DNA of 64,000 bases from a virus. The notes beneath the pieces are model-generated. The model was not told the DNA's origin. It saw only the letters and a list, made by a program, of their open reading frames with translations, and did no database searches. The DNA is taken from the IMG/VR virus record IMGVR_UViG_3300037325_000203; one strand, written 5' to 3'. A program made the position numbers and the translations under genes. Positions 5,673-55,521 of this stretch are shown here, in pieces. Every line of letters begins with the position of its first letter. Position 1 is the stretch's first letter.

Positions 5673-6572
5673 TTAGTAATTCTTCTTACCGATTAATCTA
5701 ATTTTCGTATTGGCTTCTTCTGCTTCCCGAATGACAGACAGTCGTTTATTTTGGTCAAACCCAATCAATGCCTTAACATCTTTTGGAAAACACGATCCGC
5801 CATATCCGTAGTTTTTGTCGGGTCCCGGTACATTAAGATGGGAGTTTCCGATTCTCACGTCTGCAGAAAGAATATCACTAAATTTATGCCATCCAGAAGA
5901 ATGCATTGTGTCAGGCGCGCTACCGTGTACATCGTGGTACAGCTGATACATCTGATTCATAAAAACTACCTTTGTTGCAAGGTAAGCATTAATTGAATAC
6001 TTTATAAGTGATGCGGTCTTGTAATCGGTAATGCGATATGTACAATGCTTGGTAATGTGCGAATGATTTCGATATAACTCTTCTAATTTGCAACAGTCGG
6101 AATATTCGCCTGCCATAATTATATAGGATGGATCAATGGCATCTGTTTGCCAGCTTGACTCTCTGATGAACTCTGGCGAATAGACATATCGCAGCTTCCC
6201 TGGTTTACATGACACGGGCTTAATAGACTTAGTATACACAGGCTTATTGCCGTATTTTACGGATAAATCTTCTACTATATCAGGAGGCAACGTACTCTTA
6301 AGGACTACTATTCCTTTGTATTCTGCATCTACTAATTGTTGAAATATGCTGTATATAGAACTAGCATCTACTTTGCCACTATCCAACGTCGGTGCGTTGA
6401 CTGACACGAACGTTAGTGCAGCCTTGTTTATAAATACGTTCTGTATGGTATTATCGTTGTATGCAGGATCTATGATCACGGCCTCAGTATTATGCTCAAA
6501 CGCTAAATGGCAAGATTTGCCCACTATTCCATAGCCTATAAAATTTGTGTATTTCAACATATATAACTCCAA
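5673..6572 (-). CDS. UDP-glucose/GDP-mannose dehydrogenase-like protein
   Basis: IGYGIVG Rossmann motif, KSTLPP, SPEFIRE, GYGGSCFPKD. Confidence 0.88.
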   Translation of the reverse strand: MELYMLKYTNFIGYGIVGKSCHLAFEHNTEAVIIDPAYNDNTIQNVFINKAALTFVSVNAPTLDSGKVDASSIYSIFQQLVDAEYKGIVVLKSTLPPDIVEDLSVKYGNKPVYTKSIKPVSCKPGKLRYVYSPEFIRESSWQTDAIDPSYIIMAGEYSDCCKLEELYRNHSHITKHCTYRITDYKTASLIKYSINAYLATKVVFMNQMYQLYHDVHGSAPDTMHSSGWHKFSDILSADVRIGNSHLNVPGPDKNYGYGGSCFPKDVKALIGFDQNKRLSVIREAEEANTKIRLIGKKNY

Positions 6573-6770: not shown

Positions 6771-7766
6771 TCAACCGGGTCCACACCCCCGCATACTTAA
6801 TCCTAAAAGGTCCAAGTCGCTCAACACAATCTTCAGCATAGCCTTCTTCTGTCGGACATTTTTCTCTACCATTGCTTCGGCATCCTCAAGCGAAATTTCC
6901 ATTGCTACGATAGCTCCTCCATGCACCCGGACTACGTTATACATAACGTCGTCTTCCTCGGAGTGAACTGGGCCGCTTACCGGGAACGGCCATTCTGTTG
7001 CTGGGCTAACAGGTTTGTTATACTCGCTGTTTACTACCCCCGCGAACGCATGCGAAGGGGGACCATCTACCTGTCCCACGACTTCGTATCTCATACAACG
7101 GCCTTTTGCGCCGTTGTAATCCGTCGGGATACTAACAACATCGGCAGGACTAATCTTCAAAATCATCACTGGATCACTCTGTCGCCCAAAGCTAACAAGA
7201 TACGACTCGCTACAAAAGTGCAAGCCTGCGGAACAATGAGATTCTGGATCATCATCTACAAGATTTCGATCCATCTGGACAACTTGTCCGACACTATTAT
7301 CGATAGTACCAGAATGTACGTCCATGAAGTCACTACGAACTCGTTTATAGGCCAGAAAATACCCGTCTTCGGTAATAGGCAGTTTATTTTTTTCCAAAAA
7401 TCCGTATACCTGGTCAACTGACCGTTTGGAAGGATTTTGCATTAAGTTTTCCATGAATCGGACCATTGGGTCGACCGGAAATCCTTCTAAATACATCTCG
7501 ACTAGTCTGGCAGACAGTGTATTGTGAAAGGGTTGACCTTTCCACATCACAGTGTTGCCGTCAATAGACACATATCCTCTACCAAAGTTTACCATAACTT
7601 TGGCCGGGGTGACCAAATTGCGCAGGTCGTCCCATGCCTGGGCTTTCAGCGCATCTACAATTTTCCCATAACCAATATGGGTTTCTTTGCTAATCGTGTG
7701 GCTTTTACCATCAATCACCAAAATTATATTTTTGCCTTGAATCAAATATGGAATTGCATTACTCAT
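6771..7766 (-). CDS. rIIB: RIIB-like lysis-inhibition protein
   Basis: ITEDGYFLAYKRV, CSAGLHFC, PADVVSIPTDYN.KGR; adjacent to rIIA. Confidence 0.9.
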   Translation of the reverse strand: MSNAIPYLIQGKNIILVIDGKSHTISKETHIGYGKIVDALKAQAWDDLRNLVTPAKVMVNFGRGYVSIDGNTVMWKGQPFHNTLSARLVEMYLEGFPVDPMVRFMENLMQNPSKRSVDQVYGFLEKNKLPITEDGYFLAYKRVRSDFMDVHSGTIDNSVGQVVQMDRNLVDDDPESHCSAGLHFCSESYLVSFGRQSDPVMILKISPADVVSIPTDYNGAKGRCMRYEVVGQVDGPPSHAFAGVVNSEYNKPVSPATEWPFPVSGPVHSEEDDVMYNVVRVHGGAIVAMEISLEDAEAMVEKNVRQKKAMLKIVLSDLDLLGLSMRGCGPG

Positions 7767-31954: not shown

Positions 31955-32524
31955 TTACATATTTCCTGGACTCGTCTGACTACCTTGGTCTACCTGGCTT
32001 CTCTTGAGAATACATTAGTCGAAACGTGCAATGATTATTTTCATCTAATTTAGCTAATTTTTCTTTTAAAAAACAGCGGGCGTATTGTTCAAGGTATTTA
32101 TTCATAATATGCAATGTTTATCCATCGAGTAGATCCTCCCGGTTTAAGGCCGGGCTTGCATGATACACTACTATACTCGATGGATAAACACAGCGGGGAA
32201 GGGCTATAGTTCTTCCCATGTGTTTAAAATAAGCGGCAGATTAGAGCCGTCCCAGGATTTGCACTTGCCAGGTCTCTCTTTCGAGCGCATTACTATATGC
32301 TACAGGATAATCTGTCAGGTAGACTACATTGTAGTCTACCTTTTGCTAGCCACTATTATAGCAATGATGCTGGAATCTGTCAACAGGTTATGGTCCATCC
32401 TTTAACGCATTATCGATCTGTCGTCTAACATATTTGAGGTTTGGTTCGGAAATTGTATTAACCATTTCGTAGACTGTAAGATCTTCCCTAGTTGGTTATA
32501 AGGCGTATACTTTGGTCGTAAAAA

Positions 32525-32815
32525 CAGGGACCGAAGTCCCCATTGGTTGTTTATTTTACAAGGTAAGTCCTACCTCGGAGCGGCAGTTTCTTAGGCTGCG
32601 ACCATATCTGCGAAAGCAGACATGTTCAACTCGTTTGTATTTGCGTTTGCATTTACGATTTTGTATCATTTACGTCGGTTACATGACGATTCTATGTATA
32701 ATTTTGCCTGCGCGGTCGATAGCCAGTTCACCCCCACCTAAGTACCCTAAGTTACTTAGGTGGAGGTGGAGGAAGTCGAATCCTCGTGTCGCACATTCTC
32801 TGTTACACACTTGCT
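32525..32815 (-). ncRNA. ssrA: Circularly permuted two-piece tmRNA
   Basis: T-arm/acceptor GAGGATTCGACTTCCTCCACCTCCACC precedes GGGGGTGAACTGGCTATCGAC; tag frame ANANTNELNMSAFADMVAA*; terminator follows. Confidence 0.88.
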
Positions 32816-33258
32816 AACTAAATAGCAGAATTTCTCTTTAATCTATCTGCCGTGTACCCTCTTTTTAGAAAAGCGTCTTGGTCATACAGATTAATTATGC
32901 ATTTTGTGTTATCTAAACTCATCCAACACGTAGTTACAGTCTTACTTTTTTTACCAATTACCTATCGTGTTGCTAGCACATTTTGAAAACACAGAAGAGC
33001 AGAATGGTATTGGACGAGTTGGGTAACGTCTTGGGTATAACATCGGGCTTCCTGTCAGTATTTAGTTAAGCACTATCAAGACATGACTAGTGCCTCTACG
33101 TTTCGTCTAACGGTCGGATGCAGCCGACTGCTGAGGTGCGCTACCACCTTTAACATTTAGTCAAATAGTGCTTAGCCTCAATTATAACAACCAGACGCAG
33201 TTAGACGCAAGTATCCAAGTGTGTTAGCATAATTACACGTGATATCTTAACTGAGGCA

Positions 33259-51509: not shown

Positions 51510-52382
51510 TAAAGGTCTGAGATTACAACCTTTACTAATGAAACTTCAAGTATTATCAATTAGCCTTGCGAGCTAACCTTCTCTTGACATCCACCCGGTC
51601 TGCTTTCACAGTATCCAAGTATTTCACCAACATCGCCGTTTAGAGTCAGGCATTGGACTTGACATGATATTCTACTCTGTAACTTCATTCCCGTCTGCCT
51701 TGCGAGCAGTTCACAGTCGCTAAACCGTTCCGAACTTCCTGTTACAAACCAACTTTGCCTTGCGAGCTCTGTCAGACTTGGTTACCTTGCGGCCCAAGTA
51801 TTAGATGTTTTTCAAATATCACCGAAGTAGTCTTTGCTTTTTATTTCAATAAACCTTTGAAGCGGATTTGTAGTCCAAATCTACTGTGATGTGCTACTTC
51901 AGTTGCTGAATATCTTGTTAGATACCCAATACAACACACCACGTACCTTTTGCCTTGCGAGCTACTCAGTCGTCTTTCACGATACATGTCATACATACGG
52001 ATTTTACTCCGGTCACGGCGTGCCATATTCCGATCAAACTGCATACAAGCCCTTAGTTGCGACGCTTCGGACAAATATGCTACCCTTTCTCATACCATCT
52101 ACTAAGTTGGTTTGTCGAGAGGTCAGCACCACCTGTTACTCTTTGCTTACTTGCGTTACCCTTGCGGGCGCTTGAGCAAACATTCTTTCCTCGACACTTA
52201 CTTCAATGTTATCTCACCCGGTGTTACCTCAGATAAGTATGCCTTACGGCATTGAGCAGGCTTGCCTAGTATTCCCTTGCAGGCGACGGTATGTAGAAGT
52301 CCCGTCCTTTCCACGTCTCGCGACGCTTGTCATTCGCTGCAGGCTGGGCGAACCATACCTGCAACAGGAGCTAGGCCCCCTT
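51510..52382 (-). ncRNA. Giant structured RNA, GOLLD-like
   Basis: ~870 nt, GC-richer, no credible ORF, repeated GCTCGCAAGGC GNRA hairpins, inside tRNA array. Confidence 0.7.
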
Positions 52383-53656: not shown

Positions 53657-53849
53657 TGGTGGATCGGAGGGGAATCGAACCCCACGAGCGTCCTAGGAAC
53701 ACGCCAGTTCAGCCCATTAGTAGAAACAATGTCTGCATGCTAGGCCCACTATCACCCTCCGCGGGGGTTGTGTGACTTTCTGCTCCTTACATTGTTTCTG
53801 CTGGTGGACTGTACGGGAATCGAACCCGCGTAACTCTCCAGTTCGACCC
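53657..53849 (-). ncRNA. Twin cross-paired Ala-type acceptor/T-arm RNA
   Basis: Two GGGnnGAACTGG..T-arm..CCACCA units whose acceptor strands pair cleanly only in swapped fashion. Confidence 0.62.
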
Positions 53850-53855
53850 AATTGT

Positions 53856-53928
53856 TGGTGGACCGCCTAGGGCGCGACCCTAGTGTAATTCTGCCGAAAA
53901 GTATTAGTTTGCAAGCATTTAGCGGCCC
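53856..53928 (-). ncRNA. tRNA-like RNA with G3-U70 acceptor, no clear anticodon arm
   Basis: GGGCCGC/GCGGTCC-ACCA. Confidence 0.5.
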
Positions 53929-54812: not shown

Positions 54813-54888
54813 TGGCGGGCAGTGTACGACTCGAACGCACATTACAAGGATTTGGAATCCCGGAGCTTGCCAATTAGCAGAACTACCC
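54813..54888 (-). tRNA. tRNA-Trp(CCA)
   Basis: GGGA-TTCCAAA-TCCT, G73. Confidence 0.75.
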
Positions 54889-55521
54889 TTTATTTTGTCT
54901 AGGCATGGCGCCTTTCTTCCACCCTAAACTTTCGTAATAAGGTAACTCATTTTTATCAATTCTCTTAGCAATGCTACTATTATTAATTAATGTCTTTCCT
55001 AAATTTGCTCTAGATACTTTTGCAATATGATCCTGCGAACACGTTCTACCAGTTAGTGCTTTAGAGACTTTATTCCTAGTTTCTGCGTTATCTCTCATAG
55101 CATTATTTTTAGATAATTTTAGGCGTTTTTCGGGAGATGTCGCCTGTTTTAGTGCAGACTGACGTATCTTCTCTTTAGTTTCGGCGGAATGAATTCTTCC
55201 AGCAAACGCGCCCACTATGCCCGGATTACCGCCGCTACCACCTATTTTTAAATTATACGATAGCGAATCACTTACTAAGTTTTTATCAACTATATGTTTC
55301 TCCATAATAAACATATCTTGTTTTGTAGGTAATAAATGTAAGATTGTTTTCTTAAAATTTTCTTTTCCGTATTTCTTAATTGCCCGTTTAAGATGTTTTC
55401 CGGACCCCATATAACCGTCGTTTAGATTTAGTGTTTGGTGGCAACCGATATAATATTTTTTATCTAACTGATTAGTAGTTTTGTAAATTATATAGTACAT
55501 TGTACTATATTTATGCAACAC
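54883..55521 (-). CDS. GIY-YIG (Seg-like) homing endonuclease with NUMOD3-like repeats
   Basis: IIYKTTN..YYIG.H..YMGSG..AIKKYG..YNL..GG.GG, HSAETKEKI. Confidence 0.9.
   Translation of the reverse strand: MLHKYSTMYYIIYKTTNQLDKKYYIGCHQTLNLNDGYMGSGKHLKRAIKKYGKENFKKTILHLLPTKQDMFIMEKHIVDKNLVSDSLSYNLKIGGSGGNPGIVGAFAGRIHSAETKEKIRQSALKQATSPEKRLKLSKNNAMRDNAETRNKVSKALTGRTCSQDHIAKVSRANLGKTLINNSSIAKRIDKNELPYYESLGWKKGAMPRQNKG

Follow-up and report, generated by a model that had tools for sequence, protein, structure and literature searches.

To our knowledge, the known alanine-accepting RNAs (tRNA-Ala, transfer-messenger RNA (tmRNA) in its three gene forms, and tmRNA that is reduced to its tRNA-like domain (TLD)) have one acceptor end per functional unit. 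Here we describe a phage RNA gene that appears to specify two. The gene lies on the minus strand of IMG/VR virus record IMGVR_UViG_3300037325_000203, of which we analysed a stretch of 64,000 nucleotides (nt) (hereafter, the window). Comparison of its sequence with those of its homologues supports the conclusion that this single gene encodes an RNA whose halves pair only crosswise, and that this pairing gives two alanine-type tRNA acceptor ends, neither of which comes with an anticodon. We will refer to it as the two-headed RNA.

Genes for tmRNA occur in standard, intron-containing, and permuted forms, and versions of the standard and permuted forms that lack the coding sequence (CDS) have also been described (PMC11915505). 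Such TLD-only or "CDS-less" tmRNAs are found in mycobacteriophage DS6A, in the plastids of Mallomonadaceae, and in the mitochondria of jakobids (PMC4131195, PMC11915505). Hudson et al. 2014 (PMC4131195), who cite Mao et al. 2009, report inhibition of tmRNA by the TLD-only tmRNA of DS6A and by a similar molecule, perhaps through titration of SmpB.

The two-headed RNA consists of two units that flank a spacer (Table 1). Unit 1 runs, from 5' to 3', GGGUCG, A, ACUGG, an 8-nt linker, a T arm, A, CAGUCC, and ACCA, and the AACUGG within it resembles a D loop. If each unit is paired with itself, then the acceptor stem contains U4.G69 and C5.A68 in unit 1, and C4.A69 and U5.G68 in unit 2. If the partners are swapped instead, then GGGUCG pairs with CGAUCC (the outer helix) and GGGCUG pairs with CAGUCC (the inner helix), with six clean pairs apiece, and both ends have G3.U70, A73, and CCA. 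An earlier note on this DNA had drawn the same unit boundaries and had pointed to a C-A mismatch in each unit's own acceptor stem, to the clean swapped pairing with G3-U70 and A73, and to an 11-bp stem in the spacer; on the minus strand, we confirmed all of these. It had also likened the 5' end of the element to that of the phage's tmRNA. Indeed, the window contains a true permuted tmRNA, which we used as an in-genome comparator: its coding piece opens with GAACUGG, as in the two-headed RNA, and its junction (CCA, a stem-loop, and then GGG) is alike as well.

Table 1. Features of the two-headed RNA and related elements in the window.
Feature	Position	Strand	Remark
Unit 1, 48 nt	53802..53849	minus	resembles the TLD of tmRNA
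Unit 1: outer acceptor stem, 5' strand	53849-53844	minus	GGGUCG
Unit 1: T arm 1	53829-53813	minus	canonical UUCGAUU loop
Unit 1: inner acceptor stem, 3' strand	53811-53806	minus	CAGUCC
Unit 1: ACCA	53805-53802	minus	
Spacer, 86 nt	53716..53801	minus	presumed to be an excised intervening segment
Spacer closing stem, 11 bp	53799-53789 with 53732-53722	minus	prolongs the inner acceptor helix
Unit 2, 59 nt	53657..53715	minus	resembles the TLD of tmRNA
Unit 2: inner acceptor stem, 5' strand	53715-53710	minus	GGGCUG, then AACUGG
Unit 2: 4-bp hairpin with conserved 7-nt loop UCCUAGG	53702-53688	minus	
Unit 2: T arm 2	53683-53669	minus	canonical
Unit 2: outer acceptor stem, 3' strand	53666-53661	minus	CGAUCC, preceded by UC
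Unit 2: ACCA	53660-53657	minus	
Third alanine-type tRNA-like RNA	53856..53928	minus	6 nt upstream of the two-headed RNA; self-paired and separate
True permuted (two-piece) tmRNA of the window phage	32521..32881	minus	tag reading frame present; separate from the two-headed RNA

Standard tools do not recognize this gene. ARAGORN made no tRNA or tmRNA call at the element, in agreement with the earlier note's view that it has neither an anticodon nor a tag frame, and there was no match to RF00005 (tRNA) over 53657-53928. The cloverleaf with an anticodon arm that defines a tRNA (RF00005) is absent. There is also no tag reading frame with a resume codon and a stop; only about 20 nt separate the D-loop-like motif from T arm 2. 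The only Rfam matches at the element were to tmRNA, and all of these were below threshold. In the best of them, RF00023 aligns unit 1 as a tmRNA that is missing its entire middle, with 20.1 bits, which is under the gathering score. Across the two-headed RNAs from different phages, the tmRNA scores were 11.3-26.7 bits, as compared to a gathering score of 47. Annotators should be aware that ARAGORN and Rfam overlook two-headed RNA genes.

Taken by itself, the sequence of the window is only suggestive, as the case for crossed pairing hangs on four nucleotides. We found eight homologues, all in contigs from uncultivated phages (L067, L071, L077, L096, L099 (which is the same as L182), L102, L119, and L131), by using two sequence patterns. 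The first pattern has two alanine-type 3' ends that are 105-135 nt apart, and the second has T arm 1 together with NNNN-UCCACCA; both leave the 5' strands unconstrained. In each of the nine RNAs, the 5' strand of either unit is complementary to the 3' strand of the other unit. The sequences vary among members: there are seven distinct outer helices and seven distinct inner helices. Positions 4-6 read UCG, CUA, GUG, CGU, GUA, or CAU in the outer helix and CUG, CUU, CUA, CCA, AUC, or GGU in the inner helix. Across these positions in the nine members (54 variable cells), 52 cells are paired in the crossed arrangement, while self pairing accounts for 27, which is the level expected by chance. When we shuffled the partners among members, an average of 28.5 cells were paired, and none of 20,000 shuffles attained 52.

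An alignment of the family (A1) gave the same picture. With the crossed structure, 95.3% of the cells were paired, eight pairs had changed on both sides, and none of 500 shuffles scored as high. With the self structure, 83.4% were paired, as compared to a mean of 83.0% for the shuffles (214 of 500 attained the observed value), and positions 4-6 were mostly unpaired. Sliding the crossed partners by one to three columns lowered the pairing to 41-60%. (In the three members with short spacers, MAFFT puts the inner 5' strand in the wrong place, so A1 covers just six sequences for the inner helix; the per-member pairing table, which was computed with a script, takes in all nine.) The earlier note had proposed covariation among homologues as a check on the swapped pairing, and the compensatory changes do maintain the crossed pairs, while the homologues do not self-pair.

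Outside of these variable positions, all 18 heads retain G1-C72, G2-C71, G3.U70, A73, and CCA, and a U precedes G1 in 15 of the 18. The acceptor stem has 6 bp, with 7:66 unpaired in most members. The spacers are just 3 nt (L131) or 4 nt (L096 and L099) in three members and 68-102 nt in the others, and they do not align between members. Each of the long spacers has a closing stem, whose sequence differs from member to member.

Folding calculations agree with the covariation. For the 193-nt RNA, the minimum-free-energy structure from RNAfold is exactly the crossed fold (z = -2.1). When the RNA was folded in a 388-nt context, the inner helix had a pair probability of 0.99, as compared to 0.00 for the self helices. 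Cofolding, which the earlier note had also put forward, joined the two presumed products crosswise into the designed heterodimer at -43.4 kcal/mol; alone, the two pieces fold at -14.3 and -16.6 kcal/mol. Forcing unit 1 into its self fold gave -7.5 instead of -14.3 kcal/mol, or a cost of about 7 kcal/mol. Furthermore, cofolding was favorable for all nine pairs of units, with a gain of 7-12 kcal/mol. Because RNAfold returns the crossed fold and the eight homologues covary in the crossed sense, the pattern goes beyond what chance would give, and we are nearly certain that the acceptor strands pair crosswise.

The two-headed RNA seems to belong to giant phages. The phage in the window is a divergent relative of T4, and the element lies within a run of 30-odd tRNA genes. 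Similarly, six of the eight homologues (L071, L077, L099, L102, L119, and L131) are found amid same-strand tRNA genes that ARAGORN called; for the two short loci (L067 and L096), ARAGORN did not call any tRNAs. For three of the carriers, the genome is complete or nearly so (345-365 kb), and their gp15 proteins are 65%, 34%, and 28% identical to that of the window. Given identities as low as 28%, this RNA is old within the giant T4-like phages. Each of the three complete genomes has one true permuted tmRNA, and none of the three encodes SmpB, AlaRS (alanyl-tRNA synthetase), or a FemAB-type transferase.

Other searches did not turn up more members. A family-specific pattern, run on 185,579 genomes of bacteria and archaea, gave only chance matches; in viral contigs, three patterns with an obligatory GAACTGG found just ordinary tmRNA 3' ends and ordinary permuted tmRNAs; and a scan of metagenomes for single mini-TLD units (described below) yielded no two-headed member. 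Contigs chosen for their relatedness in gp15 (L052-L060) have no tRNA array beside gp15 and lack the element. BLAST of the element's region and of the adjoining open reading frame (ORF), P0001, gave no match in cultured phages, and the only relatives of P0001 were in near-identical contigs, at 90% identity. We also considered L006 as a member of the family, and dropped it because its strands do not fit.

We propose that the two-headed RNA is a strand-swapped pair of TLDs that is processed and charged and that acts as a tag-less mimic of the TLD of tmRNA. As a whole, we consider this explanation to be the best available and somewhat better than an even bet. The transcript from the minus-strand tRNA array would fold into a four-way junction, and this predicted junction, in which two stacks of acceptor and T arm are linked by two crossover strands, is conserved. 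The outer helix would stack on T arm 2 to give the outer head, and the inner helix would stack on T arm 1 to give the inner head. In the gene, the parts of the inner head follow the order seen in permuted tmRNA (T arm, 3' strand, CCA, spacer, and then 5' strand). The earlier note had seen this likeness at the center of the element, and Rfam alignments support it: the alignment to RF04321 spans the junction, and tmRNA_permuted aligns T arm 1, CCA, the spacer, and GGG in L067, L096, and L131 (22-27 bits).

RNase P would then cut on the 5' side of both GGG starts, and the spacer would be trimmed back to the CCA. (If the spacer has only 3-4 nt, then a single cut by RNase P at the inner G1 would also produce the short 3' trailer of unit 1.) Both of the ACCA ends, G3.U70, and A73 are invariant, while spacer lengths range from 3 to 102 nt, which is what we would expect if the spacer is excised, as in two-piece tmRNA. 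From these patterns, we think that cleavage into two pieces is probable. The resulting RNAs of 48 and 59 nt would remain base-paired as a heterodimer, and the host's AlaRS would charge both heads, which is plausible because the full alanine identity set is invariant. We hold alanylation of the heads to be likely too, if slightly less so than cleavage. The most likely use of the RNA would be as a tag-less mimic of the TLD that acts on how the host handles stalled ribosomes, by way of SmpB, EF-Tu, or empty A sites. We rank an effect on ribosome rescue first among the possible roles because the closest parallel comes from phage DS6A and its TLD-only tmRNA, but this role is tentative, and on balance we would not expect it to be correct.

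Several observations weigh against parts of this proposal. First, in the 388-nt context, RNAfold gave the outer helix a probability of just 0.02 because its 5' strand can pair with the T loop. Nearest-neighbor folding often lets tRNA-like sequences mispair in this way. Also, the outer helix is present in the minimum-free-energy fold of only four of the nine precursors, and the outer stem of L077 requires one bulged U. Second, we recognized members of the family partly by their crossed complementarity. Third, the GAC motifs that flank helix 2 in the TLDs of tmRNAs are missing or displaced, as judged from the sequences. In tmRNA, the GAC motifs beside helix 2 have a role in binding SmpB, and binding of SmpB by the two-headed RNA is doubtful. 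Finally, the carriers with complete genomes keep their own tmRNA, appear to depend on SmpB from the host, and do not encode it themselves; because their tmRNAs look functional, a sponge for SmpB would compete with the phage's own tmRNA.

As to how the RNA might work, a more speculative idea is that one head stacks perpendicular to the other, as the two arms of a tRNA do, so that each head takes the place of the other's anticodon arm (or of SmpB, in the case of tmRNA). This is a long shot. If it were true, the RNA would have the shape of a tRNA and would carry an aminoacyl end on each of its tips; it could enter empty A sites without SmpB, or could bridge the A and P sites or two subunits of AlaRS. 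It would be the phage's own way of dealing with stalled host ribosomes.

One alternative to a processed heterodimer, which we view as unlikely, is that the RNA stays uncut, as a cloverleaf-like molecule of about 190 nt that has the crossed fold and in which only the outer end is a true acceptor. The internal helix, together with the ACCA loop, would then be a pseudo-acceptor arm in the place of the anticodon arm, and might serve as a protein-binding or decoy hairpin. The crossed fold does have the topology of a tRNA cloverleaf (outer stem, hairpin, inner stem, extra hairpin, and T arm), and in L096, L099, and L131, the inner helix amounts to a plain 6-bp hairpin with a loop of 7-8 nt. Furthermore, we infer cleavage, like charging, from the sequences, which favors the uncut form to that extent and is another point against our proposal. 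However, nine of nine members share the internal G3.U70, A73, and CCA without variation, and a U precedes the inner G1 in eight of nine. The spacer can have any length from 3 to 102 nt. The inner pattern also matches that of permuted tmRNA genes, whose precursors are known to be cut (PMC9004378 and PMC11915505, both citing Keiler et al. 2000).

It is about equally unlikely that a processed two-headed RNA has some other use. It might be a decoy or sponge for something that binds the acceptor ends of tRNAs, such as a host defense nuclease, a nucleotidyltransferase, or the dimeric AlaRS, or it might donate alanine to a non-ribosomal transferase that depends on aminoacyl-tRNA. Retention of the phage's own tmRNA argues against a block of trans-translation and so fits with another use, and two heads would, we infer, suit a dimeric partner. 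On the other hand, the three complete genomes encode neither a FemAB-type transferase nor AlaRS; the one adjoining protein, P0001, gave no sign of a conserved protein neighbor, as its relatives are in near-identical contigs only; and there is no known target in host defense for alanine acceptors that lack an anticodon.

It is very improbable that the locus comprises two independent mini-TLD genes in tandem, each of which folds on itself and tolerates one C.A and one U.G, with an unrelated cassette as the spacer. Self-paired relatives do exist, as single mini-TLDs in about 35 marine contigs, as a single RNA in L113, and as a tandem of alanine-type RNAs in L086, but across the nine members self pairing is at chance while crossed pairing is nearly complete, the self stems of L096 would have three mismatches in six positions, and unit 1 folds less stably when it is forced into the self form (-7.5 vs. 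-14.3 kcal/mol). Least credible of all is the idea that the units are what is left of decayed tRNA or tmRNA genes and complement each other by chance. Degenerate tRNA-like pieces do occur in phage arrays, and several T loops in the window were not called as tRNAs. However, compensatory changes extend across phages with as little as 28% identity in gp15, and both units keep perfect T loops.

Self-paired RNAs that are built from similar parts occur in other contigs. The mini-TLD family comprises self-paired, TLD-only mini-tmRNAs of 64-70 nt from about 35 marine contigs (L012-L051 from metagenomes and L061-L063 from IMG/VR). They have a GGGGCG acceptor with G3.U70, followed by AACUGGUAUUCGA, a covarying hairpin, GAC, a T arm, and CCA. 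In L032 and L051, the mini-TLD is preceded by its own -10 box. A 70-nt marine mini-TLD had no BLAST match in cultured phages. The presence of self-paired mini-TLDs in so many marine contigs implies that this building block is a genuine RNA of phages, and a common one. L113 (286-333, plus strand) encodes a single 48-nt self-paired RNA that corresponds to unit 1 of L102 or L077 joined to the outer 3' strand, as though recombination had taken place between the two T arms. In L086, a contig of 463 kb, two self-paired alanine-type mini RNAs lie in tandem (at approximately 5676-5860, plus strand). Since both single (L113) and tandem (L086) self-paired versions exist, the crossed form is a distinct sub-architecture.

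The earlier note had also described a third G3-U70 tRNA-like RNA ahead of the two-headed RNA. As a feature of the sequence it is real: it has a 7-bp acceptor stem with G3.U70, A73, and CCA, and where the T arm is expected, it has a 7-bp hairpin with a 3-nt loop (z = -2.1 for the fold). It has no anticodon arm and does not match the T-loop consensus. The third RNA is known from this one sequence only, and the homologues have no conserved counterpart at a fixed place. Three of them do have alanine-type elements upstream of the two-headed RNA, namely an element of about 88 nt in L071, a 31-nt microhelix in L096, and a tRNA-Ala in L131, but these cannot be aligned to the third RNA. The one in L096 lies about 100 nt upstream and is a hairpin with a 6-bp GGGCCC/GGGUCC stem (including G3.U70), a 14-nt loop, and ACCA, or in other words, an alanine "microhelix" without a T arm.

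The UCCUAGG loop of unit 2 (53688-53702 in the window) is also present in unit 2 of L071, L077, L096, L102, and L119 and is absent from L067, L099, and L131. The stem under it has 3-4 bp and covaries (GUGU/ACGC, GCC/GGC, CGU/ACG, and others). The palindromic CCUAGG core could form a kissing interaction with another copy, and CCUAG recurs in the spacers of the window, L071, and L102. We considered whether this hairpin might be the anticodon arm of an amber suppressor (with anticodon CUA) and did not adopt this view: the stem has just 3-4 bp, there is no D stem, and position 33 is C. The ORFs in the window read normally in translation table 11, which also disfavors it. Separately, the tRNA array of the phage in L077 includes a tRNA called by ARAGORN (7324-7398, minus strand) with the anticodon UUA, which would read the stop codon UAA. 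A split tRNA-Ala was rejected as well because the element does not contain an anticodon arm with UGC.

The window also includes rIIA, a gp15-like gene, and a GOLLD RNA. The GOLLD RNA (51514-51942, minus strand) is a full-length match to the Rfam model (194 bits) and lies in the tRNA array, at a distance of 1.7 kb from the element. A search of the three complete relatives did not detect GOLLD; the control for that search also gave no match, so this is a weak negative. An ORF within the tRNA array (54883-55521, minus strand) has the look of a GIY-YIG homing endonuclease, as judged from the GIY...YIG motif near the N terminus of its translation. The minus strand also has GUUCRAWUCC T-loop motifs without an ARAGORN tRNA call, at about 58183, 56211, 52913, 52421, 49444, 48686, and 25202. 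These are probably further tRNA-like or degenerate elements, both inside and outside of the array.

How does the two-headed RNA compare to known systems? Like permuted tmRNA (RF04321 and RF01850), it has a T arm, a 3' acceptor strand, CCA, an intervening stem-loop, and then a 5' GGG with GAACUGG; it has G3.U70 and A73; and its acceptor stem is assembled from parts that would end up on two pieces of RNA. Only in the inner head is the order permuted, so that the 5' strand comes after the 3' acceptor strand and CCA. Unlike permuted tmRNA, the two-headed RNA has no tag frame, no pseudoknots, and no helix 2, whose place is held by a second full acceptor stem with its own T arm and CCA. Like TLD-only tmRNA, it is borne by phages and presents a bare head of alanine identity, with an acceptor stem, a D-loop-like motif, a T arm, and no message. 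However, TLD-only tmRNA is a single self-contained domain, of standard or permuted order, while the two-headed RNA has two domains that are interlocked, with the crossed pairs conserved and self pairing at chance. Because the strands are interlocked crosswise, neither unit can form an acceptor stem alone.

With tRNA-Ala and with alanine minihelices, the two-headed RNA shares G3.U70, A73, CCA, and a canonical T loop; it differs from them in having no anticodon arm, no D stem, and two acceptor ends per RNA. (Francklyn and Schimmel, in 1989, reportedly found that alanine minihelices, which consist of the acceptor and T arm, are substrates for AlaRS.) We found no description of an RNA with this layout in the literature or in the RNA family libraries that we searched. 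If processing and charging take place, then strand swapping would represent a new design for a tRNA mimic, and it would offer a handle on how giant phages act on the host's translation quality control, which phage-borne tmRNAs have left open. In summary, this is a conserved family of phage RNAs with two acceptor ends that form only by swapping strands between the halves. It appears to be built from known parts: a TLD of standard order and a permuted TLD, nested one within the other and sharing their strands.
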